Positions 15,063-26,844 of a DNA stretch of 64,000 bases are shown in pieces (position 1 is the first letter of the stretch; each line of letters opens with the position of its first letter). Location: positions 1,088,001 to 1,152,000 of the forward strand of contig CAWFQB010000001.1 in assembly GCA_963817895.1 (NCBI GenBank), given 5' to 3'. The notes beneath the pieces are model-generated. The model saw only the letters and a list, made by a program, of their open reading frames with translations, made no database searches and was not told where the DNA came from. The translations under genes and the position numbers were made by a program. Source of the stretch: an uncultured Chthonomonadaceae bacterium (GTDB lineage Bacteria > Armatimonadota > Chthonomonadetes > Chthonomonadales > Chthonomonadaceae).

Positions 15063-15548
15063 GGTGCTGAACTCCTTAAGTCCGTGTGTGCCGGCTGCAA
15101 GGCCGGGTTGATTAGCGTGTGTGTGCTTGGGTAGGGCGTTCAGAACAGGGCTTTCAGATAAGCCTGCGCAAAACGCCGGTGTGAGACAATCGCGCAAAGG
15201 CGGAAGAGATACTGCCGCTGTGCGCCTTACGATTCGATTGCGCAAATGCAGCGCAACGAGGCCGCATTCTTTTCAGCTTCGGGGCCGAGGCTGCGCGGTC
15301 AGGCTGCCGGATGGAGGAACCTGAACGCGGCGGGGTTTCTCCCACAACACCGGGGTACGCGCTTAATGACGCGACACCGGCAGGGGAGAAGATTAGTATA
15401 AGCTTCGTTTGTCATTATACATCTAGATCGGCAGTGCGTCAATAGAAAAATAGCTGACAAAACACACTGGAAATATTTCTATCCGCCGTTTTGATGTGAA
15501 CATACCCTGAGTACTTCAGTTGAGAGTGCAAAGTTTTGGCGGGAACAG

Positions 15549-15611
15549 CAAAACGCCTGAGTCGCCATACTCTCCTGCGTTCAGGCACGGGAGTATAGCG
15601 ACTCAGGCGTT
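15549..15611 (-). terminator. Long hairpin terminator downstream of the tRNA-like copy (likely the original host tRNA-Val 3' flank)
   Basis: AACGCCTGAGTCGC...GCGACTCAGGCGTT then TTTT on the minus strand. Confidence 0.65.
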
Positions 15612-15620
15612 GTAAACGGA

Positions 15621-15715
15621 TGGGCAGTACTGGATTCGAACCAGTGACCTCTTCGGTGTGAACGAAGCGTTGCTCCGCAGCGTCTAACGACGCGCTTCGC
15701 AGGAGCCAACCGCCC
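15621..15715 (-). ncRNA. tRNA-Val(CAC)-like sequence with expanded D-arm at the integrase-side att junction
   Basis: GGGCGGT TG GCTC [CTGCGAAGCGCGTCGTTAGACGCTGCG] GAGC AAC GCTTCG TTCACAC CGAAG AGGTC ACTGG TTCGAAT CCAGT ACTGCCC A; acceptor, anticodon and T arms intact; expression unknown. Confidence 0.7.
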
Positions 15716-15799
15716 GACAGAATTTCCTTCCTCTCCTCACAAATACAGCGCTTCGTGTGTCTGTTTATCCTCCTCAATCCAACGATGAGGATGGACACA

Positions 15800-16798
15800 A
15801 TGGCAAAGACAACGCTTCGTTCTTCGACTTCGCACAGCGCTTCGTGCGACCTTAGCCTCAGCGACCTGAAACGCTACGGGGACGCCTGGTTACAGGACAG
15901 CAAGTATCGGCAACTGTCCGAACAAACCCGCTACAATCGCGGCCTGCTTATCGAGAAACTGCAATGGTGGCTGCAACAGCAGAAATGCGCCGTCTGTGGT
16001 ACGCTGGAAATCAAGCAATTCTTGGCCTATGTGGGCAATGGACACAACGAGCAAGGCGGCAGGTGGGGAAATGCCCAACTCACTCGCGCCGTGAGGCCTC
16101 GCACGGTCAAGGACTATCACGGCAACCTACGCACCTTCTTCAAGTATCTGGTGGAGGAAGGCTATCTGGACGTTTCGCCAATGGAGAACGTCAAGCCGCC
16201 TGTCTCTCGCGCTGACCAGATTGTACCCTTCACACAAGAGCAGGTCAACGCCCTGCTACAAGCGGCAAAGACCGGCAATGCTCCCCTGCGCGATGAGGCG
16301 CTGATTCTGTTCCTGATGGATGGCGGCGTCCGTGCCAGCGAGCTATGCAGCCTCACCATGCAGGATATAGACGTGGTAGGCAAGCGGGCTACGGTGCTAG
16401 GCAAGGGGAACAAACATCGAACCGTGTACTTCGGGCGCGACACTTCCCGCGCTGTGATGCGCTATCTCAAAACAGAGGAACGCAAGCCCTCCGATCCGGT
16501 TTTTAAGTCCGAACGGGGAGAGGCGCTTACCCGGTCTGGTTTGCTCCAACTGATCCACAGGCTCGGACGTGCCGCCAAGATCGAAGCAACGCGCTGCTCA
16601 CCCCACACCTTCCGCCATACCTTTGCCGTCGAGTTCCTACGGGGAGGGGGACAGGTCTTCGCGCTCCAGCAAATCCTCGGACATACTCAACTTGGCATGA
16701 CACAGAAGTACGTCGCCATTGCTCAGGCTGACGTCCAGAACCAACACCTGCAATTCTCTCCCGTCGAGCGCCTACGGAACAAGGGAGGGCGCAAATGA
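15800..16798 (+). CDS. Tyrosine recombinase/integrase (XerC/D-like, no obvious arm-binding domain)
   Basis: GVRASEL (R), GKGNK (K), HTFRH, LGH, TQKY catalytic residues; alternative ATGs at 15785 and 15791. Confidence 0.95.
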   Translation: MAKTTLRSSTSHSASCDLSLSDLKRYGDAWLQDSKYRQLSEQTRYNRGLLIEKLQWWLQQQKCAVCGTLEIKQFLAYVGNGHNEQGGRWGNAQLTRAVRPRTVKDYHGNLRTFFKYLVEEGYLDVSPMENVKPPVSRADQIVPFTQEQVNALLQAAKTGNAPLRDEALILFLMDGGVRASELCSLTMQDIDVVGKRATVLGKGNKHRTVYFGRDTSRAVMRYLKTEERKPSDPVFKSERGEALTRSGLLQLIHRLGRAAKIEATRCSPHTFRHTFAVEFLRGGGQVFALQQILGHTQLGMTQKYVAIAQADVQNQHLQFSPVERLRNKGGRK

Positions 16799-16923
16799 GC
16801 ATCCAGCGCTACAAGTCCGGGCGCTACTGGGCTGTCTACGATGAACACGGAGAGATGATCTGCCTGTGCGTATACAAGAAGGGCGCATTAGAGGTCGTAA
16901 GAAGGTTATTAGGCTGTGATTAG
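16795..16923 (+). CDS. 42-aa small protein coupled to the integrase (candidate directionality factor)
   Basis: ATGA overlap with integrase stop; RBS GGAGGG; MSIQRYKSGRYWAVYDEHGEMICLCVYKKGALEVVRRLLGCD; below the ORF-track cutoff. Confidence 0.65.
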   Translation: MSIQRYKSGRYWAVYDEHGEMICLCVYKKGALEVVRRLLGCD

Positions 16924-17397
16924 AGGAGATTTATATCAAGCTTACTGTTGGTAGACAAACTAAGGCGTGTGATATCTATACGCCTCATGACAATTGTATT
17001 GACATGAGTATGAGGAGTGTGCTAATCTTTCTTTACTCTATCTATTAGAGGATTTAGAATAAGTGCCGACGCGGTCAGTGTTTGTCCTGTGCGGAGTAGT
17101 TTCGGTTACTATCAGAGGCTGATTCCATTCTCTGAAAAGCCTTGAAGACACTAGGATGGACTTATTCTAAAGCCTCTTAGGACTTACGCGGTTGTTGCTC
17201 ACTGTTTAGCTTTTTCGAGATAGAAGCGTTTTGGCAAAGCTGTGAACATCTGTTATTTTGTGCCTCTCACAGGTGTGCAAACAGTTCCAAAGCAAGGCTG
17301 ATGAGATTGCGCCCCTATGGTGAGCAGCAATTGCGTAAGTCCTATCTATATCAGCGTATATACTACCAGCTTGATACCAGCGTAAGGAGCCGTTAAC

Positions 17398-18222
17398 TTG
17401 AGTGATCTTCCTACCATAACAACTTACGACGCATGGGTGTTAAAAGAATTAGATATAGATCTAACCTTAGATACCCAAATAAGGCAATACGACAACGATA
17501 TTGTAACAGCTAAATCAACTGTGACGAGTCACCCGTTTTTTCAAAATTTAGCTGGTTTTGTTGAAGATTGTTGTATGGATTACAAAGATCAAGTAGGGGC
17601 AGACTTGCTCATGAACAAATTTGAACTATCAATTGTTTCTAAAACATATAAATCATCTATCAACAAAAGTTACCGAATGAACATTGTCCTCAATAAAAAT
17701 CTTCCTGGCCCTCCATCTTCTGGATGGATATCGCCCGAAAACTGGTACGAGGAACTCAACGATCTATTACGAACTCGAATAACCTGTAAGTTTATTGATG
17801 GTCCTCAATATTTATCAAATCGGCTAACCGAATATGCAGCAACGCATGGATTGGACTTAAATTTTAGGTCTCAGCAGAAAGACGGTGGCTACTATGCTTA
17901 CCACTGCTATGTCCATATTGATGTACCACTGCTAAAACATTCTGCGACTGGCCGTGTTGTATATGACGTAAAAATGTCTGTTGAAATCCAGTTAACAACG
18001 CAACTTCAAGAAGTTCTTTATGATCTTACCCATCCGATATACGAAGCGTTGAGAGTCAAACCCGAGCAGGATCCATCTGCATGGAAATGGGATTACAAGT
18101 CAGATAGATTCAAATCTGGTTATATGGGACATACTCTTCATATGCTAGAAGCAATTATTCTGGAAATCAGAGATAACAACATTACTTCGGCTAAGGTTCA
18201 GGAGAACGAAGATGTCAAATAA
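17398..18222 (+). CDS. RelA/SpoT-like (small alarmone synthetase-type) nucleotidyltransferase
   Basis: LNDLLRTRI, GGYYAYH, VEIQLTTQLQ...LTHPIYE resemble SYNTH motifs; RBS AAGGAG, TTG start. Confidence 0.7.
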   Translation: MSDLPTITTYDAWVLKELDIDLTLDTQIRQYDNDIVTAKSTVTSHPFFQNLAGFVEDCCMDYKDQVGADLLMNKFELSIVSKTYKSSINKSYRMNIVLNKNLPGPPSSGWISPENWYEELNDLLRTRITCKFIDGPQYLSNRLTEYAATHGLDLNFRSQQKDGGYYAYHCYVHIDVPLLKHSATGRVVYDVKMSVEIQLTTQLQEVLYDLTHPIYEALRVKPEQDPSAWKWDYKSDRFKSGYMGHTLHMLEAIILEIRDNNITSAKVQENEDVK

Positions 18223-19870
18223 ACATAGTATGATCCCTTCTCCAGAGGTTGTACATTTAACAACAGTATTCCGGCGAATACAGAATGGTGAAATTCGTAT
18301 ACCAGCGTTTCAACGAGGATTTGTCTGGGAAGAAGACCAGATTATCAAACTTTTGGAAAGCATTTTTAAAGGCTATCCAATAGGAAGTCTTCTGTTTTGG
18401 AAGGTGGATAAAGCAGGCGATACTGTGTTGAATGTTTTAGATGAGAGTTCTGACTCTGACAACACCCTTGTGCCTTTCCCTCATATTACACTCACATTTC
18501 CAGTAAATTATGTGTTAGATGGTATGCAGCGTCTTTCGTCGTTGTATGGGGTATTCCTTGCTGCTACAACTAACGATAGTTTTAACGTCGTTTTTGATCT
18601 GGAAAAGCGGGAGTTTATTTATGACGATCAGAGAAAGCTTGTAGCACCTCGTTTCTTGAACCTATCAGATTTATTCGCACCACGCCGCTTACTTGATGCG
18701 CAACGTTCTATGACTGAACAAGACAATGGCGAAATTTTGATTGACAGTTCCATCGAACTTCTTTCTTCGTTCCAAGAATATATGCTACCAATTGTAACGA
18801 TCTCGACAGATAATGTAACTGAGGTAGTTGAGATATTTGAAAGAGTGAATAGTACAGGCACAAAGTTGAGCAGAGTGGACTTCATGCGGGCTTTAACGTG
18901 GTCTGACGGCTTTGACCTAAATGTAGCCTTACGAAGTATTAAGGAGGATATCCTTCTTCAAGGATTTGTGTTCCCATATGAAACATTGACCAAAGTAGTC
19001 GCAATTCTGCTCGGCAAGAGTCCAACACCAACTTCAATGCTTGAACTTCGAAGTTTTTCATCCGATGATCTTCACGAAGGTGTTATGAAAGCGAAGATGT
19101 ACCTATCCGATGTAACTGGATTTTTGAGAAACGAGTTTAGTATTTACTCTTCAGATTTCGTACCGTATGAGGGGCAACTTCTCGTTTTGGTTAAATTGTT
19201 TGAACAACTTAGTTACTCATGGATAGATGACGGAACTGCCAAGCAAGTGATTTCTACTGCAAGGGAATGGTTTTGGAACACTAGTTTCAGTGAAACATTG
19301 CGGGGTAAGCCCGACGGATACGTCATTCGAGAAATACAGAGCGCAGTAAATCTTACGAAGGGTGATCTTCGTGCTTTACCTTCAAAGCTGCTGCTTGACG
19401 ATGACACACTGCGTGAACGGCGCTTTACCAAAGGCAAAGCATTGTCGTCAGCTATAGCTGCGCTATTCGCTAGTAACAAAGCACGAAGCTTAGTAACTGG
19501 TGAAGTAATACCACCAGAAAAATATATGACTGATTTCAAAGTGGAAAATTTTGAGGCGATATGTTCCCAAAAGGCAGTCCAAGCATCAACTATTCGCAAA
19601 GTTTCATCTCCAAAAGTATTGGCGAACCTTTGTGTGGTGTTGGATACGGATAGAAAGTCATATAATCCGTTTAATCCACATGCGTTACTCCTATCAGTTT
19701 ATGAACGGTTTGAGCCTGAAACAGCCGACGAAATTCTTCGATCCTTGTTTGTGGACGATCAAACGTTCTATATCCTTAAAGGTGGTGACGAAATAGATTT
19801 TCTGAGACACCGCTCTGCTAATATGCTTATGGCTGCTGGAAGAGTCAATCGAGACACACGCACGTCCTAA
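18212..19870 (+). CDS. DUF262 (GmrSD N-terminal-like) domain protein
   Basis: IPAFQRGFVW, YPIGSLLFW, VLDGMQRL, IFERVNSTGTKLS. Confidence 0.88.
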   Translation: MSNKHSMIPSPEVVHLTTVFRRIQNGEIRIPAFQRGFVWEEDQIIKLLESIFKGYPIGSLLFWKVDKAGDTVLNVLDESSDSDNTLVPFPHITLTFPVNYVLDGMQRLSSLYGVFLAATTNDSFNVVFDLEKREFIYDDQRKLVAPRFLNLSDLFAPRRLLDAQRSMTEQDNGEILIDSSIELLSSFQEYMLPIVTISTDNVTEVVEIFERVNSTGTKLSRVDFMRALTWSDGFDLNVALRSIKEDILLQGFVFPYETLTKVVAILLGKSPTPTSMLELRSFSSDDLHEGVMKAKMYLSDVTGFLRNEFSIYSSDFVPYEGQLLVLVKLFEQLSYSWIDDGTAKQVISTAREWFWNTSFSETLRGKPDGYVIREIQSAVNLTKGDLRALPSKLLLDDDTLRERRFTKGKALSSAIAALFASNKARSLVTGEVIPPEKYMTDFKVENFEAICSQKAVQASTIRKVSSPKVLANLCVVLDTDRKSYNPFNPHALLLSVYERFEPETADEILRSLFVDDQTFYILKGGDEIDFLRHRSANMLMAAGRVNRDTRTS

Positions 19871-19993
19871 TGGACAAACCAGATAAAGATTGTACTATGG
19901 CGGGGTTCCGAGTGTTGAAAACACCCGTCTGAGTGGCGTTCCGCCAAGCGTCCTACGGACGCGGGATTGTACAATGTTCAAGTGGTTTGTCCA
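19871..19993. mobile_element. MITE-like element, GNA-hairpin family copy A
   Basis: TIR TGGACAAACCA...TGGTTTGTCCA flanked by TAA on both sides; internal hairpins GGCG-TTC-CGCC and GCGTCC-TAC-GGACGC. Confidence 0.7.
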
Positions 19994-20023
19994 TAAGTTT
20001 ACTATTCTGCGTTTGAATACTGA

Positions 20024-20278
20024 TCAGTTATCCATTTCTTTCAGCAAGTTTTCATACCTTTGTACGAACTCCACTAACCCAACCCCTAGTGCCTGACAGA
20101 CCTCCCGCAATTCAGGGAGGTCTAGTATTCTTTCTCCCGACTCGAACCTGCTGACGAACGACTGCGGTTTGCCGAGACGTTTGGCAAGGTCAACCTGCGT
20201 CAGACCAGCATCACGCCGAACCTGACGAAGTAAAGATTGTAGTAATTCCTGCTGAGGCGTGTAGAGAGACTTTTGCAC
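20024..20278 (-). CDS. XRE-family HTH transcriptional regulator
   Basis: RRDAGLTQVDLAKRLGKPQSFVSRFESGER. Confidence 0.9.
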   Translation of the reverse strand: MQKSLYTPQQELLQSLLRQVRRDAGLTQVDLAKRLGKPQSFVSRFESGERILDLPELREVCQALGVGLVEFVQRYENLLKEMDN

Positions 20279-20374
20279 CCCTCATTGTAGAAACTACGGT
20301 CGCAATATGCAGGAATTAGATATTTTCAGGAGAATACTAGGCATGAGCAGATTGCAACACACAGGAGGGGAATA

Positions 20375-21502
20375 ATGCCGACACTTGGAGAGGTCAAAGA
20401 GCAGATCAAGCGTGCTGATGGAAAAGATACTTTCCTCACTTGGAGAGAAGTACAGGACTTGCCGAATGTCCTAGCTGATGGCGAGACTATCCAGAGGGTA
20501 GCACAAGCAGGGTATAATGGCGTGACAGGTATGCTGTTGGCGACAGATCAGCGCCTTATCTTCATCAAAACGAACCTTCTGAACAAAGCAATGGTCCACT
20601 CTTACCCCTTCTCCAACATTGCTTCTCTCAACAGCAAGCCGGGTTTGCTATTCACTACTTTCAACATCGGCTTGTCTGACGGCGATTCTGTCATAATCCA
20701 GACGATTGCAAATGTCGTGGCACAGCGCATCTGTGACTATGTTCAGCCTCGTATCGGCGTCACAAGTCCGCCACAGACAGTCCAGAGCAGCAATATGACT
20801 TCCGAACTGGAACGATTAGCGAATTTACGGCAGCAGGGACTTTTGGATGAGCAGGAGTTTGCAGATGCCAAACAGCAGATCATAGCGAAACAGCCTAGGT
20901 TTCCACCCGCCGACATACGCTTGCCTAGTCTCCAGACGCCACATCAGCCCGTCTCTCCACAAAACCATACAACACAACCTGCTACGCCTTCACCTACGCC
21001 GCAAAGGACTCTAAAAAAGAGTACGATAAACAATATCTTTACTGCATTAGTGCTTTCTCCCATCTTCTGTTTCGCAGCGTATGTCATGATTTCTGACATG
21101 CGCGGTTCCTCGCAGACCAATATGACAATGAGTAGATCGTCTACGACCGCTACAACAGAAACGCCTGCTCCGGCTCCTGCTGAACCCGTAAAGCCATCGA
21201 AACCTGATCCAAAAGACAGTCCGGCCTTCAAGAAGAAGTTTGCGGCGTTGCTCGATAACCTGCGAGGTATCAGCGGTGTGACCGATGCAAAACAATTTGA
21301 CTGGGATCATTCTATGGGAACAATCAACGTATACGTCCCGGTCGGTACGAGCAAAGATCAGGCACGGGAAATAGCATCCGAGGCGTATCGCGAGTTTGTA
21401 CTGGTGCGGACGCCGTTCTATGGGGAAGATGCTGATAATTGTCAGATCGGAATACGGGATACAGATGAGCGTCTAATTCTTACGCGTAATAACCTGTGGT
21501 AG
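20375..21502 (+). CDS. Membrane protein with bacterial PH-like and SHOCT-like domains
   Basis: GMLLATDQRLIF (PH-like); ELERLANLRQQGLLDEQEFADAKQQII (SHOCT); one TM helix; RBS AGGAGG. Confidence 0.75.
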   Translation: MPTLGEVKEQIKRADGKDTFLTWREVQDLPNVLADGETIQRVAQAGYNGVTGMLLATDQRLIFIKTNLLNKAMVHSYPFSNIASLNSKPGLLFTTFNIGLSDGDSVIIQTIANVVAQRICDYVQPRIGVTSPPQTVQSSNMTSELERLANLRQQGLLDEQEFADAKQQIIAKQPRFPPADIRLPSLQTPHQPVSPQNHTTQPATPSPTPQRTLKKSTINNIFTALVLSPIFCFAAYVMISDMRGSSQTNMTMSRSSTTATTETPAPAPAEPVKPSKPDPKDSPAFKKKFAALLDNLRGISGVTDAKQFDWDHSMGTINVYVPVGTSKDQAREIASEAYREFVLVRTPFYGEDADNCQIGIRDTDERLILTRNNLW

Positions 21503-21522
21503 AGGTAGACTTCTACAATTCA

Positions 21523-21561
21523 AAGGGAGGTTCTAATCCAGCAGGTTAGAACCTCCTTTTT
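21523..21561. terminator. Probable bidirectional intrinsic terminator
   Basis: GGAGGTTCTAA...TTAGAACCTCC followed by TTTTT, between convergent genes. Confidence 0.75.
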
Positions 21562-21575
21562 CCCGTACACCGCCA

Positions 21576-21923
21576 TTACATAAGGCTCTGGTATCTGCCT
21601 GTTCCGGCGACGGCTTGCAGAACGTCGTTCGCCTGTGCCTGTGAGCGCAAGGCAAGTGTCTGCTTACGGAGTGCCTGCGCTTTCTGCCAGAGTTCTTTCG
21701 TGTTACGGTCTACCCGTAGAATCGCCTCATGTGGGTCTGTAAGTTCGCGTACACGTTGGTACGTAGCTTCGGCTATACGATGCGTTTCCTGTCGAACCTT
21801 CGGAAGTTCCCTCTGTGTCGCGCTATTCAGGCGTTGTGTCTGCGCTTGGAGCGTCGGTAGCAGCGCGTCCAGTTCGGCTTCGATTTCTTCGTAGTTCATC
21901 GTTCGTTCTCCTGTGTCTAGCAA
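21576..21923 (-). CDS. Hypothetical coiled-coil protein
   Basis: ORF with heptad-like helix; likely true start at the MNYEE ATG after AGGAG. Confidence 0.55.
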   Translation of the reverse strand: MLDTGERTMNYEEIEAELDALLPTLQAQTQRLNSATQRELPKVRQETHRIAEATYQRVRELTDPHEAILRVDRNTKELWQKAQALRKQTLALRSQAQANDVLQAVAGTGRYQSLM

Positions 21924-22219
21924 TGCGGGTAAATAGGGCAGCAGTGTGTTTAAATTGGTTCTGCCCTGAGTCTGTCACAGAACACGTACAAACGCACATC
22001 TGATGTCATATCAATCACCCCTGTCATATCGCTCTATTTCATGATATACCCCTCCCTCATGATATACCCTTCCACTTTCGCATGATGCCTGAGTGCTTCT
22101 ATTAGACGGCTAATTTTATAAAAGTCGCGGATGATGGAAACTGCCATACAGGAGGGAGACCCTTCCCCCTTATAGCCCCCTCTCTTGGAAATGAGGAGGG
22201 GGAGGTTACGTTTTCGTTC

Positions 22220-22876
22220 TTACTTGCTTACGGATACGCGGAGTACCTTCTGGTCGAGGAGTATCTGCATACCTCTGGCAAACCCATACAGATACGCCTC
22301 TGAAGACGGTTCCGCTTTGCAGTTGTACAGGTCGCCGTTCGTTCCGTACTGTTGATCTGCTGCGAGACGCAGATGATCGCGCATCTTCTGGACAGCCCTA
22401 CAAGCGCGACTCAGAGTAGCGACTGAGCGCTGACTACACGGCACCTTCTGCAATAGCCTGTGTAGTGCCAGAAGACCTTTCAGCAGGCAGAGTGTCTCGG
22501 CGCTTAGGCGCTTGTGGAGGTCACGCGGAATGCCTATCTTGCGTCCAGTAGGAGGTTGCACAAGGATGTCCTCAACGGCATAGGCCCATAAGACGAACTC
22601 TGTTGTCCCGATAGCCTGATCTTGGTAGGGCATTTCCGTGTCCCAGTGTGCCGCTTCGAGGTCACAGTACAGGTTGCTCAGTTGCAGGCTTGTGAGCCGA
22701 CTCTGGCGGATAGGAACCGATACGCCCGACAGGACATTCGTGAGCGATTCTGCAAGGCTGCCCATGCTCTGAGACAGCGCGAGAATCTCTTGTCGCAGGT
22801 GTTTCTTCGGTTTGGTTGTCGTCAGAGATATTTTCTTGAGAGTTGGTGTCATGCTCTGCTTGCTCCTATATCGCAA
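22220..22876 (-). CDS. Hypothetical protein
   Basis: 218-aa ORF co-oriented with the replication module. Confidence 0.55.
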   Translation of the reverse strand: MRYRSKQSMTPTLKKISLTTTKPKKHLRQEILALSQSMGSLAESLTNVLSGVSVPIRQSRLTSLQLSNLYCDLEAAHWDTEMPYQDQAIGTTEFVLWAYAVEDILVQPPTGRKIGIPRDLHKRLSAETLCLLKGLLALHRLLQKVPCSQRSVATLSRACRAVQKMRDHLRLAADQQYGTNGDLYNCKAEPSSEAYLYGFARGMQILLDQKVLRVSVSK

Positions 22877-22901
22877 TTATTGCGATACATTCCATATGCG
22901 C

Positions 22902-23258
22902 TCACGAGGAAAGGCAGGCCTCATAAGCCTCTGGCGCGTTTGTCTGTCTCGGCATGTCCAAGAGCCTTACCAGACAAATCGCCGCTTGCAGATCAGGTTG
23001 GCGGGTGTATACGCGGACAGTCTCGCCTGTGGTGTCGTCCTGTTGGTCGAGGTACTCTCCTCGCGCCAGATAGATAATCCCATCGAGAATATCAGGCAGA
23101 TGATCGGTGACACGCTTGCGAACACGGAGAGCGACATTCGCGAACCGCTCACGTTTTGGAACTGGGCCAGAATTGAGTGCTGCCCCTGCCCGAATGTGAA
23201 TAGGCCTCGTTTCTCGTGATTCTAGAGTTTGCATAATCGTACCTTTCCTGTGTGTCAT
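22902..23258 (-). CDS. Hypothetical protein
   Basis: 118-aa ORF; RBS AGGAAAGG before the MQTLE ATG. Confidence 0.5.
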   Translation of the reverse strand: MTHRKGTIMQTLESRETRPIHIRAGAALNSGPVPKRERFANVALRVRKRVTDHLPDILDGIIYLARGEYLDQQDDTTGETVRVYTRQPDLQAAICLVRLLDMPRQTNAPEAYEACLSS

Positions 23259-23430
23259 GGGGTATGTTAGGGTATGTTAGGGCATGTTTCGGCCTCCCCT
23301 TACCCCGGTTTTATAAAATTATAGTTTGTGTTTTCACCTTATGACGGAAGTTGAAACATACCCCCTCTAACGGAGTGTCTCAGTTAATCGCAGGTTTCAA
23401 AGAGTATCGTGCGCCATTTTTCGTTGGATG

Positions 23431-23506
23431 GCGTCTTTAGCGTTTTAAGCGTCCAAAGGTTAGAAGATATAAAACGCTTAAAACGCTAAAGACGCTAGAG
23501 CGCAAT
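23431..23506. repeat. Iteron-like 9-bp repeats (AAAACGCTT/AAGACGCTA) in inverted arrangement; candidate replication origin
   Basis: GCGTCTTTAGCGTTTTAAGCGTC ... AAAACGCTTAAAACGCTAAAGACGCTAGAGCGCAA. Confidence 0.65.
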
Positions 23507-23513
23507 CGGTTTA

Positions 23514-25859
23514 TCATTTTTCCTCTTCCTCTGTATCATCCTCATGGATGATCGTCCAGAACTCGCGAGGCCGTCCGTCCGTCTCCTCCTTTGTGCATGT
23601 TGCTAATCCATTTCGCTGGAGAAGCTCTAATGCTGTTGTCAGACGCGCCGTTGTGATATGCTTTTGGAATACGTCGTCGCGTATGTCCTTTCGACTCATG
23701 CCCTCTGTTGAACGCAGAGCAGATAGGACTTTCTCTGAATCCTTGTTGCCAAGAGAAGTGCCAAAAATGAAGGCAGCCGAGGCGTCGCAGTATTGCCAAA
23801 CGGCGAGAGCCGCCTTGAGATGTGCGGTGCATATCGTTTCCGACTTGTCCAACAGTGCGTAGAGCATAGATAGGCGAAGAACCTGAGCTTCTGCGCGGGA
23901 GGTAACATGACCGAGAACTCCCTCCCGATCTTCTGTGAGTGTCGGGTAAATTTCGCACCATAAAGCTCGTGCGCCCTCATCACGCTTAATCTCACCTGCG
24001 GATGAGGCAAAAGCAATTACTTCATGTAGTACCTGCCGCAGCGAAACAATATCCGACTCTGGAAGGTTTCCACCTTCTGGAAGTAGCTTTGACCGTTCAG
24101 AGCAAATCCAGAGGAAACGGTTGGCGAATCCGTTGAATAGATTGCTGCCTTTATTCAAGCATTGAAGCAACTCCTCTCTCGTGATATGGCCTACGATAGA
24201 GATATGAGCGTCTGTTGCGCAGTCGGGATTTGTCTTGGTAAGGTTTTTCAGGTTGCCACTGTCCCAAGCTTCTCTCAACACGGAAGATAGTTTGTTTGTG
24301 TCGCGTTCCATAACTTGCAACACGCCTGCGAATTCCGTTTCCTTATCGAGTAGGCGCTTATCGCTCACGCCGGGAACCATCACGGCTTCGTATTCCTTCT
24401 TTCGCTTATCGTAAATATGTTCTGTTCGATCATCCCTCACATGGTAAACAAGACCTTCGCCAGATGCCAGACCTCCCTTGATACAGGTCTTTACCCATCC
24501 GGTGCTGCCATCGTCTTCACTGAAAAGAGCGAGTATGAGGTCTAGACCTGTGCCTTTTCTTCCTCGTGAGGACTGCCCGACTGTCGCGCAAAATAGGTTA
24601 GTGTGATGTTTGGTAGCGCCTACCTTGAAGAAGGCCTTTCGGCCTATTCGGTTGCCGAAAGCCACTAGAAACTGCACAAGGAGAGCCGTCGAGTCGGCTT
24701 CTGTATGCGGCGCAAGTGTCTTGAGAACTTTTCCTACCAGACCATAATGCGCTTCTTCTGGTAGTGCCTCAGGCCATATCGAAATCATTTTTCTATTGCG
24801 CTCTAGCGTTTTAAGCGTCTTTAGCGTTTTATCTCCTTCGCCTATTTGCTCCTTTGTTTGACTTTGGACGCTTAAAACGCGGTGAGGAGAGTAGAAATCT
24901 GCTTCTCTTTTCCCCTCGTAAGCTTTGTATATCGTGCCACGCAAATACGTCGTATCTCCTCGTGCTGAATCGTACTTTTCACGGAATAGAGCGGATGCGT
25001 ACATGAGGCGCTCAACCTGCTCGTGTCCATCCTTTCCACAGTAGAAGGCGAGCTTACTGCATAGAGCAAGATCGGCGCGGCTGTCGTCGTCGTCATAGTC
25101 GCTAATGTCGCCGTCGTCGAATAGCCTCTTGAACTTGTCCCCGTTCTTCTCGTTCCTTGCCAATTTAAGCACAGCCATATCGGGGATTAGATCGCGCTCA
25201 CGAGCAGGGAAACTTTCTGAGCTACCGGCAATCAAATCCTCGACGACGCTCTCTCCTGAGAGTTCCTTGTACAGCGTCTGGAATTCATCGGTTCGCTCTT
25301 CAACGGTTGCCGGAGTGCCAGGCCAACGAACGCCCGTTACAGTAAAGTATCGCGCCTGTGTGTACATCTCGACTATGATGCCACCACAACTCCCCTTGCG
25401 CCCTTTGTGGTTTCCTTTAACTTTCACGAAGATGTGCAGGCCTGTACCAGACGGGCTGACTTCGGTGTAAGAGTCAAGCCGATTGACGATTTCCTGTGCT
25501 TTAGGACATATCTTCTGTCCTGTTGCGTCAATGACTTTATCGAGATCGATGCCCACGATATCATTCTCTTCGCTGAAGACGTAACCTATCCCCTCGTAGG
25601 TATGCCGGGACAAAGCTTGCTGCGCCTTCTCGAATGTCGCCCAATCTGACGGTTCCATAGTGGAAACTGCCCCTCCGTGTAGGGCTGAGTAGGGAACCTT
25701 CGTAGTTTTTTCTCCTCGTGTTTCTCGTTGCCACCCTACCCAAGCCTTGTGGTTTTTTAGTTCGTCAGGGACACATTCGTATCCATCTGTTTTAGGCATC
25801 AAAGTTCGCACTTGTCTTTTTACGGTCGAAATTTTAACCATTATCTGCGCCTCTTTCAT
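23514..25859 (-). CDS. Primase-polymerase (AEP/NrS-1-like) fused to a DUF3987/YfjI-like helicase and C-terminal winged helix
   Basis: GIGYVF, VGIDLD, YTEVSPSGTGLHIF; SRADLALC; GQSSRGRKGT; LREAWD; GFANRFLW. Confidence 0.85.
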   Translation of the reverse strand: MKEAQIMVKISTVKRQVRTLMPKTDGYECVPDELKNHKAWVGWQRETRGEKTTKVPYSALHGGAVSTMEPSDWATFEKAQQALSRHTYEGIGYVFSEENDIVGIDLDKVIDATGQKICPKAQEIVNRLDSYTEVSPSGTGLHIFVKVKGNHKGRKGSCGGIIVEMYTQARYFTVTGVRWPGTPATVEERTDEFQTLYKELSGESVVEDLIAGSSESFPARERDLIPDMAVLKLARNEKNGDKFKRLFDDGDISDYDDDDSRADLALCSKLAFYCGKDGHEQVERLMYASALFREKYDSARGDTTYLRGTIYKAYEGKREADFYSPHRVLSVQSQTKEQIGEGDKTLKTLKTLERNRKMISIWPEALPEEAHYGLVGKVLKTLAPHTEADSTALLVQFLVAFGNRIGRKAFFKVGATKHHTNLFCATVGQSSRGRKGTGLDLILALFSEDDGSTGWVKTCIKGGLASGEGLVYHVRDDRTEHIYDKRKKEYEAVMVPGVSDKRLLDKETEFAGVLQVMERDTNKLSSVLREAWDSGNLKNLTKTNPDCATDAHISIVGHITREELLQCLNKGSNLFNGFANRFLWICSERSKLLPEGGNLPESDIVSLRQVLHEVIAFASSAGEIKRDEGARALWCEIYPTLTEDREGVLGHVTSRAEAQVLRLSMLYALLDKSETICTAHLKAALAVWQYCDASAAFIFGTSLGNKDSEKVLSALRSTEGMSRKDIRDDVFQKHITTARLTTALELLQRNGLATCTKEETDGRPREFWTIIHEDDTEEEEK
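24797..24881. repeat. Second iteron-like cluster inside the primase-helicase linker
   Basis: TTGCGCTCTAGCGTTTTAAGCGTCTTTAGCGTTTTAT ... TTTGGACGCTTAAAACGC; inverted copy of 23431-23506. Confidence 0.65.
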
Positions 25860-26046
25860 AAAAGTGAGCGGGACGGGCGCATTCGTCCCGCTCTGTTCTG
25901 GGGATCAACCAGAACACTGTTGTTGCTTTTTCAGAGGAAACCTCTACTGCGCCAGCAACTTGCCCAACGTGTATTTATATCTACTATTAGTATCCCTCCT
26001 TTTCATGGTTTACTCTGATAATCTAACAATAATATATTATTAGATT

Positions 26047-26388
26047 TTAGTTCAGATCAGATTTAGCACCTCTTGGGATGACTATGCTCGGATTGAGTTG
26101 TTGGTACTTGGCAATGTCCATCATGACTTCAGCCAAGACAAATTTCCCCAAAAACTCCATTTGATCCGTCACCGTCAGGAATTGTTCTTGCAGGCGAGTT
26201 CCGTAGGTGGTAATTACGTCGTCGCCGTAGGAACAACTCCGGTTTTCTAACAAGCGATGCAACTCACGCATTGCTTCTGCGTTTTCTCGAAAAATGCTAA
26301 TGGCGCTTCGCATGTGCTTACTGATGTTCTCCAGCATTTCCACCTTGTTGCTATTCACCAGCACTTCCATCTTGTTCTCTTGAGACAT
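26047..26388 (-). CDS. Hypothetical protein
   Basis: 113-aa ORF, RBS GGAG. Confidence 0.5.
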   Translation of the reverse strand: MSQENKMEVLVNSNKVEMLENISKHMRSAISIFRENAEAMRELHRLLENRSCSYGDDVITTYGTRLQEQFLTVTDQMEFLGKFVLAEVMMDIAKYQQLNPSIVIPRGAKSDLN

Positions 26389-26480
26389 GGTTTTCTCCGA
26401 TCTCTTCTGAGTCGAATCGAGCCAGTTATGGCTCAGAAATCATAACAACCTTTTTATATTAAAATTGGGGCCATAAACGC

Positions 26481-26522
26481 AAAAAGGCCGAGACGATTCA
26501 CAATTAATGAATCGTCCCGACC
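26481..26522 (-). terminator. Intrinsic terminator inside the island end, downstream of tRNA-Val
   Basis: Minus strand GGTCGGGACGATTCA-loop-TGAATCGTCTCGGCC-TTTTT. Confidence 0.7.
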
Positions 26523-26772
26523 ATGATTTTCAGTTGTTCTGTAAAGGCTAAATTTTAATATAAAAAGGTTGCAAGATTATTGTACAGTAGCCATAGGAGT
26601 TTGTCAAGCAAAGTTTTGAAAATCGGAAGAAACAGATGGAACAGCGGTTGAGAGGACGCCCAAGACAGCGCTTCGTATGGCATAATAAAGGACGTAGGCA
26701 GCGCTTCGTTCGCGCAGTTCTACGCCCTTTAGGAAGATAGACAGACACAGATTTGTGAGGAAGAATCGGAGA

Positions 26773-26844
26773 TGGGCAGTACAAGATTCGAACTTGTGAC
26801 CTCTTCGGTGTGAACGAAGCGCTCTACCACTGAGCCAACCGCCC
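26773..26844 (-). tRNA. tRNA-Val(CAC)
   Basis: GGGCGGTTGGCTCAGTGGTAGAGCGCTTCGTTCACACCGAAGAGGTCACAAGTTCGAATCTTGTACTGCCCA: canonical cloverleaf, anticodon CAC, CCA not encoded. Confidence 0.95.

Follow-up and report, generated by a model that had tools for sequence, protein, structure and literature searches.

Target-tracking copies of an anticodon-stem half-site beside an arm-less tyrosine integrase on a tRNA-Val(CAC) island of an uncultured Chthonomonadaceae bacterium

Island anatomy and integrase

We analysed a 64,000-nucleotide stretch of DNA from an uncultured Chthonomonadaceae bacterium (phylum Armatimonadota; assembly GCA_963817895.1, contig CAWFQB010000001.1, forward-strand positions 1,088,001 to 1,152,000; hereafter the window, to which all coordinates refer), concentrating on a genomic island, its tyrosine integrase and a short motif repeated at the island's inner ends. 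Two minus-strand copies of tRNA-Val(CAC), detected with ARAGORN at 15621-15693 and 26773-26844, bound this island of approximately 11.2 kb, a duplication that places it among tRNA anticodon-loop elements. Its genes include the integrase, a GmrSD-domain gene, a helix-turn-helix gene and an NrS-1-type primase-polymerase. The attachment (att) junction beside the integrase gene (15621..15711, minus strand) combines the host 3' half of the tRNA with an element-borne pseudo 5' half and folds as a cloverleaf with an extended D arm, a hairpin having been inserted in the D-loop. The core at this junction (15651..15667) consists of a CTTCG half-site, a 7-bp anticodon-loop overlap (15656-15662) and a CGAAG half-site, the classical anticodon-loop arrangement (PMC8371274, in extract). 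At the far end, the intact tRNA-Val(CAC) (26773..26844, minus strand; core at 26803-26819) joins the host 5' half to the 3' half of the element. The T arm and the 5' half are not identical between the two tRNA copies, and the crossover was therefore assigned to the anticodon arm; in nine attL/attR pairs from the family described below, sequence identity likewise lies around the anticodon loop. We infer that the island is an integrative element recombining across the 7-bp anticodon loop of tRNA-Val(CAC), where cleavage presumably occurs.

The integrase gene (15800..16798, plus strand) encodes a protein of 332 aa comprising a disordered N-terminal tail, a core-binding (CB) domain and a catalytic (CAT) domain. 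Pfam placed SAM_4 at residues 29 to 120 (23 bits, below the cut-off of 27) and Phage_integrase at 144 to 308, while the structure model has a low-confidence tail with helices starting at residue 20. A first-pass annotation of the sequence had suspected the absence of an arm-binding domain, and both the Pfam domains and the model, which contain CB and CAT only, bear this out. The catalytic residues R178, K202/K205, H269, R272, H295 and Y304 are invariant across 56 sequences, and with the R-K-H-R-H-Y set on CB and CAT domains alone the protein is a simple (arm-less) tyrosine recombinase. XerC, XerD and XerA are its best sequence and fold matches, yet it scores below the cut-offs of the XerC and XerD equivalog hidden Markov models (HMMs; 162 of 330 bits for XerD, and 160 of 335 bits), and its gene lies on a tRNA island. 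All NCBIfam scores were far under cut-off. The integron IntI HMM was missed by a wide interval (55 bits against a cut-off of 265), and lambda-type integrases differ in possessing an arm-binding domain and in accessory sites whose sequence is not that of the core half-site. By the features tested, the integrase is outside the Xer, integron and lambda-type families. No second family member was found in its own genome.

Repeat copies in the window

The motif CARCGCTTCGT has seven exact matches in the window, every one within the island, on the plus strand at 15746, 15810, 15835, 26666 and 26699 and on the minus strand at 15662 (the core half-site) and 18041. The whole 7.48-Mb genome holds 19, equivalent to 0.16 per 64 kb. 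With one mismatch allowed, the window contains 16 matches against a shuffle mean of 3.4, and none of 100 shuffles reached 16. The six motif stretches reported in the first-pass annotation were all located: 15810-15822 and 15660-15672 are exact reverse complements, as are 26700-26711 and 26812-26823, and the local stems described around two of the copies (CGCAC..GTGCG at 15831-15848, and 26687-26730) are present as written.

On the integrase side, putative accessory site copy 1 (15746..15756, plus strand) has its stem 88 bp from the end of the anticodon loop. Copy 2 (15810..15822, plus strand), likewise putative, occupies codons 4-8 at 152 bp from the loop, 64 bp after copy 1, and putative copy 3 (15835..15845, plus strand) follows 25 bp further on, at 177 bp. 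Copies 2 and 3 are inside the integrase coding sequence, as had been remarked, provided that translation starts at ATG 15800, the start indicated by the family consensus. The far arm carries two more putative sites (26699..26711 and 26666..26676, both plus strand), with stems 99 and 132 bp from that of the half-site.

The remaining stretch is a 7-bp motif copy within the D-loop insert (15693..15699, plus strand). The 7-mer CGCTTCG by itself occurs 36 times in the window, so that a single match such as that at 15693 is weak. Its distance of 32 bp from the crossover loop does not fit the family phase, and L150, the only relative with the same geometry, has a D-loop insert without a motif copy. 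The sequence is there as described, but its standing as a conserved site is not supported.

Copies track the target tRNA across the family

In a sample of 401 genomes of the phylum, 96 carry a relative of the integrase at an E-value of 1e-40 or better, and the named matches are Armatimonadota. Around the strongest, mostly full-length matches listed, with weaker and partial ones excluded, 98 regions were fetched; the resulting 99 loci contain 105 integrase matches, 76 of them with a tRNA on the same strand just upstream. The 75 loci with an intact N-terminal match served as a training set, in which 29 different anticodon stems are targeted. A held-out set of 165 matches, 47 with an upstream tRNA, came from loci in metagenomes, viral sequences and additional genomes.

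The usual layout is a tRNA, some 40 bp, copy 1, a hairpin containing the ribosome-binding site (RBS), the ATG and then copy 2 within the first codons. When scored against its own and swapped anticodon stems, the own stem outscored the mean of the swapped stems in 67 of the 75 training loci and every swapped stem in 44. Strong copies of the own stem numbered 91 against 2.4 expected in the training loci and 34 against 1.2 in the 26 full-length held-out loci used for this count. Tracking extends to distant loci (28-40% identity), among them the Actinoplanes locus L004 and viral contigs, at offsets that are partly different. The repeats are thus a real, conserved, family-wide feature. The first-pass annotation had proposed asking whether the motif follows the target's anticodon stem while the protein stays constant; the motif does so across the 29 stems, whereas the recognition-helix residues of the protein vary.

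The inverted orientation of the copies relative to the tRNA, also reported earlier, is true of the window but not of most relatives, whose copies read in the tRNA sense; it arises because the tRNA is flipped in this element. The flipped tRNA and D-loop hairpin are shared by L150 (57% identity), where the copies lie at 68, 130 and 155 bp, two turns shorter than in the window. Separately, L200, L201, L207 and L218 (36-40%) have an intact reversed tRNA-Val(CAC) immediately before the integrase and a stem-matching copy approximately 81 bp off, a separate occurrence of the flipped geometry.

Spacing of the copies

The copies repeat the core half-site in direct orientation and at fixed distances, as in TnpI- and IntI1-like systems. 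With spacing left unconstrained, the best pair was separated by 63-65 bp in 24 of the 75 training loci and by 62-65 bp in 12 of the 47 held-out loci; the two copies lie on either side of the RBS and start codon. Measured from the loop, copy 1 falls at 66-69, 77-80 or 87-90 bp, later copies at 130-133, 139-145 or 151-154 bp, and third copies at about 165-168 and 176-177 bp; third copies 23 to 25 bp after copy 2 also occur in several relatives. Phase coherence is greatest at a period of 10.6-10.8 bp (0.65-0.78, compared with 0.09-0.17 at 10.0 and 0.23-0.28 at 11.5), a figure dominated by the two main peaks, so that the argument for phasing rests on the stepped sub-peaks. At the far end, a direct-repeat copy is present in all nine attR sites recovered, at 68, 76-79 or 110/133 bp from the element half-site. 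This half-site is often degenerate at far ends, with similar cases among the matches listed.

Covariation of integrase residues with the target

Comparison of protein columns with target bases used 69 training proteins, seven others being excluded because of internal stops or short matches. Covariation was strongest for R245 with C27, R42 with C28, and residues 39, 101 and 108 with base 31; for base 30, F144 ranked first and residue 105 second. R245 is present in 52 of 58 proteins with C27 and in none of 11 others, and R42 in 21 of 24 with C28 as against 6 of 43 with T28, while R101 accompanies 18 of 24 cases of G31 and R108 16 of 23 cases of C31. These four arginine rules were fixed before being applied to 41 held-out proteins (five dropped for stops and one as a duplicate). 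All four held (R245-C27, 25:6 versus 1:9; R42-C28, 13:3 versus 5:20; R101-G31, 13:2 versus 2:24; R108-C31, 14:6 versus 4:17), with Fisher p-values of 1e-3 to 5e-7, uncorrected for kinship. The residues change even between close relatives, such as L048 and L301 (82% identical) or L056 and L146 (77%).

An arginine opposite C, or on G, is the textbook arginine-guanine contact. The specificity residues lie in or just before helices 41-60, 100-119 and 245-258 of the structure model, which are predicted to contact DNA, and R245 aligns with the TRQ motif of XerD. In XerH, the inner 5 bp of each arm are read by N-terminal helices and the outer groove is entered by a helix of the catalytic domain (PMC5241119, in extract). 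The candidate specificity residues of the window integrase are L39, Q42, R101, D105, G108 and R245; Q42/R101/G108/R245 predicts C-T-x-x-G, in agreement with CTTCG.

Deviations of the copies from the tRNA were examined in 116 copies from 73 of 104 loci. The target base was kept in 176 of 180 instances with the corresponding arginine present and in 16 of 21 without it, rates that are inflated by the admission of copies with at least three of five stem matches. In 11 of the 14 loci where both copies depart from the tRNA, they do so in the same way, and in L141 the copies follow the R101 of the protein (G31) rather than the tRNA (T31).

Several observations, besides that inflation, count against a family-wide code read by the protein at phased sites. 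The own stem fails to beat every swapped stem in 31 of 75 loci, attR was recovered in just 9 of 122 loci, and copy 3, at +23 to +25 bp, is out of phase with copies 1 and 2. R42 is present with T28 in ten loci; among the 21 closest held-out proteins, the sole case without C27 had R245, and the R42 rule gave p = 0.055. Contrasts between closest pairs were 5:0, 15:0, 18:0 and 11:0 for the four rules, each top or tied-top of 309 columns, but this test is not strictly independent; strictly independent pairs on supported branches number three to six per rule, an underpowered set that followed the expected trend with none reaching p = 0.05.

Function of the copies

We consider it very probable that the repeats are accessory core-type sites for the integrase on double-stranded DNA (dsDNA), helically phased and presumably bound by it. 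This was one of two readings offered in the first-pass annotation, with synapse architecture or autorepression as the possible purpose, and it fits all of the tests. The integrase would use the arms of the anticodon stem as core half-sites, and the CB- and CAT-domain helices that recognise the crossover site would bind the copies as well. After excision, the circle (attP) would have copies in both arms, all pointing the same way with fixed helical spacing, which should enable them to wrap the arms into a defined synapse. Extra integrase molecules on the copies would wrap attP and mark it as distinct from attB; they may also help to load the weak, often degenerate element half-site and bias the direction of recombination, with the copies taking over the role of lambda arm sites and their arm-binding domain. 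Since copies 1-3 lie on either side of the RBS and start codon, integrase occupying them probably acts as a repressor of its own gene, and the hairpin that hides the RBS between copies 1 and 2 (15757..15798, plus strand) may damp integrase translation. Dual coding would be tolerated because the first codons encode the disordered tail. When a lineage switches its target tRNA, residues 42, 101, 105, 108 and 245 and all copies would change together.

A purely regulatory role, in which integrase on the copies serves as a repressor of its own gene and perhaps of a far-end transcript but has no part in the synapse, appears improbable. Copies 1-3 do bracket the RBS and ATG, with the fixed 63-65 bp between the first two, and binding of TnpI at the res site modulates expression of its own gene (PMC7157771, in extract). 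However, it is not only the distances within the gene that are set: those to the crossover core also step by approximately 10-11 bp, and all nine attR ends, where there is no integrase gene close by, bear a far-arm copy.

The spacer hairpin is the sole conserved RNA structure found (z below -2 in 43 of 63 relatives), and with tRNA, copies and integrase gene on one strand in most relatives it lends some appeal to an RNA switch. On this view, transcripts reading through from the tRNA, or made from the excised circle, would contain copies that base-pair with the anticodon stem's free 3' strand; the RBS hairpin would then open, so that integrase is translated according to the integration state. 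The flanks of 29 of 104 scored copies are nearer to the reverse complement of the 3' side, as such pairing would have it, but 65 resemble the 5' side instead. The pairing would span merely 5-9 nt, transversions make up 37 of the 55 copy-versus-tRNA mismatches (the other 18 being transitions), and both the window and L150 retain copies despite an opposite-strand tRNA. Far-arm copies and helical phasing would be left unexplained, and we regard a switch of this kind as very unlikely.

The second reading in the first-pass annotation, that target-matching loops displayed in a structured RNA or single-stranded DNA (ssDNA) programme the integrase, has the tracking of 29 stems and the local hairpins around two window copies in its favour but is hardly credible, given that protein residues vary with the target even between the near relatives named above, that the distances are phased as on dsDNA, that only 9 of 55 changes are of the sense-wobble type, that the protein model has nothing beyond CB and CAT except the short disordered tail, and that copies fall in loops no more often than in shuffles (plus strand, 16 observed versus 17.2 expected, 15 versus 15.0 and 4 versus 6.7; minus strand no higher). 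Guide or loop display was accordingly rejected. Whole end regions fold unremarkably (z of -0.8 to -1.3). A search of sequencing runs, bearing on whether a small RNA is expressed from the ends or the circle junction, gave only small shares, with at most 15% of the sampled words of 15500-16000 in any run. Tracking of the target by a motif does not on its own argue for an RNA guide; here the accessory copies and the protein residues both change with the target, and the code is therefore one read by the protein.

Returning to accessory core-type sites, a bolder version, which we put forward tentatively as somewhat less than an even bet, is that these integrases form an apparently undescribed, widespread arm-less tRNA family building a lambda-like directional intasome solely from phased core-type sites and a modular residue code (positions 42, 101, 105, 108 and 245, with 39 and 49). 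The full-text literature, a scope outside which most subscription journals fall, yielded no description of the family, of target-tracking phased copies or of the residue code.

Comparison with known systems

Among the closest parallels is the integrase of mycobacteriophage Brujita (IntBrujita, PDB 5vfz), which is also arm-less and matches in sequence (E 1.7e-7) and in fold. It reportedly requires a single additional integrase site next to a P half-site that is poorly bound, and element half-sites in the present family are often degenerate as well. The fold match has only 20% identity, however, and the present family differs in having three to five copies across both arms at conserved phased distances, copies that overlap the integrase's own start, and dozens of tRNA targets. 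IntBrujita is classified as a simple tyrosine recombinase that drives both integration and excision (PMC8138268, in extract; see also PMC3694055, in extract).

TnpI and its irs site (Tn4430, Tn5401) share with the island a core (IR1-IR2) accompanied by direct repeats (DR1, DR2) upstream of the recombinase's own gene (PMC7157771, in extract). TnpI, though, is the resolvase of a transposon and works on a pair of identical sites, whereas here an integrase would join attP to attB in tRNA genes, the copies flank the core and the host target sets their sequence. At attI1 of class 1 integrons, two direct repeats likewise act as supplementary binding sites for IntI1, and have been proposed as topological filters (PMC8946536, in extract). 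Besides the missed HMM, the island differs in that its open reading frames (ORFs) include no cassette array and that the loop-display test gave no sign of a folded ssDNA partner. Lambda-type anticodon-loop integrases also have a 7-bp loop overlap with stem arms as core sites (PMC8371274, in extract), but here there is no arm-binding domain and the accessory sites share the core sequence.

Bridge RNAs of IS110 elements carry target-matching segments that vary with the target. In this family, unlike IS110, specificity covaries with DNA-reading residues of the protein, and the copies have no conserved loop display, two respects in which it departs from a bridge-like RNA-guided recombinase.

How integrases switch tRNA targets, and how attP is told from attB where no arm-binding domain exists, are open questions usually approached one enzyme at a time. 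The family offers more than 100 natural enzyme-site pairs in which target, accessory copies and recognition-helix residues can be viewed side by side, with the copies as a read-out of the protein's own preference. Predictions of the residue-to-base reading, and of which spacing counts, are exact and cheap. Were the bolder version true, exchanging the code residues together with the copies would redirect the enzyme from one to another of dozens of natural 5-7-17 bp palindromes, and it would be a tyrosine integrase programmable through its protein. The family may also offer a rational way of retargeting a small tyrosine integrase.

Other features of the island and its relatives

A second, quasi-palindromic motif, TTT(GAG/CAC)..CTCAAA with a consensus close to TTTGAGCTCAAA, lies ahead of copy 1 in many of the 41 loci compared. 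It is indifferent to the target, occurs in both arms and is sometimes doubled approximately 21 bp apart; its reverse complement scored above shuffles (p <=0.02) in five of nine far arms. In the window, a candidate for this second class of accessory motif lies at 15735..15744 (plus strand), an exact inverted repeat of its candidate partner at 26751..26760 (plus strand), and scores poorly against the family matrix. The motif may be a site for a bending or architectural protein.

A 42-aa ORF (16795..16923, plus strand) overlaps the integrase stop. Its model, beta-beta-beta-alpha, has a predicted local distance difference test score of 93. Foldseek returned nothing at E 0.001, and VIA-align matched the lambda arm domain (2wcc) and a GCC-box domain equally (Z of 3.4 for both; root-mean-square deviation of 2.6-2.8 over 41 aligned residues), a weak AP2- or arm-domain likeness with which many unrelated folds tie. 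Among the fetched loci it stands beside a related integrase only in the window and in L150 (1660-1770); elsewhere, 0 of 19 loci with the small gene had this integrase within 1.5 kb. Relatives of the protein occur in 24 of the 401 phylum genomes, with up to seven per genome. With fold likeness weak and linkage to the integrase rare, a free-standing arm-binding domain seems a doubtful reading, and we treat the ORF as a passenger and no general part of the family.

In the window (15621-15711, minus strand) and L150 (280-370, minus strand) the pseudo-tRNA keeps its acceptor strand, while the D-loop is replaced by hairpins of differing sequence (fold z of -2.1 and -3.0, respectively). The pseudo-tRNA of flipped elements may be a tRNA-like RNA or a spacer preserving the phasing. 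At the far ends of L046 and L047, attR contains a near-complete tRNA copy; the whole tRNA is therefore carried in attP, a possible precursor of the tRNA flip. In nine further loci (L060, L078, L096, L103, L151, L168, L175, L220 and L223) the integrase is preceded by the 3' half of a tRNA, the arm copies lie further upstream and the element half-sites are often degenerate, which suggests tandem islands or circle junctions.

On the host side, just 3' of the tRNA end, 15545-15615 holds a long inverted repeat that could be a repeat element or a terminator. A promoter and terminator scan of 15500-15900 found nothing. The replication protein, of primase-polymerase type, is encoded at 23514..25859 (minus strand) and combines NrS-1 HBD and DUF3987 domains. 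A low-GC cargo segment (17398-19870, plus strand), in which a 274-aa gene without a Pfam or NCBIfam family overlaps the GmrSD-domain gene, is likely to be a defence module. The lone perfect 11-mer copy at 18041-18051 (minus strand) lies mid-island within the 274-aa ORF and may be a chance match or a stray site.

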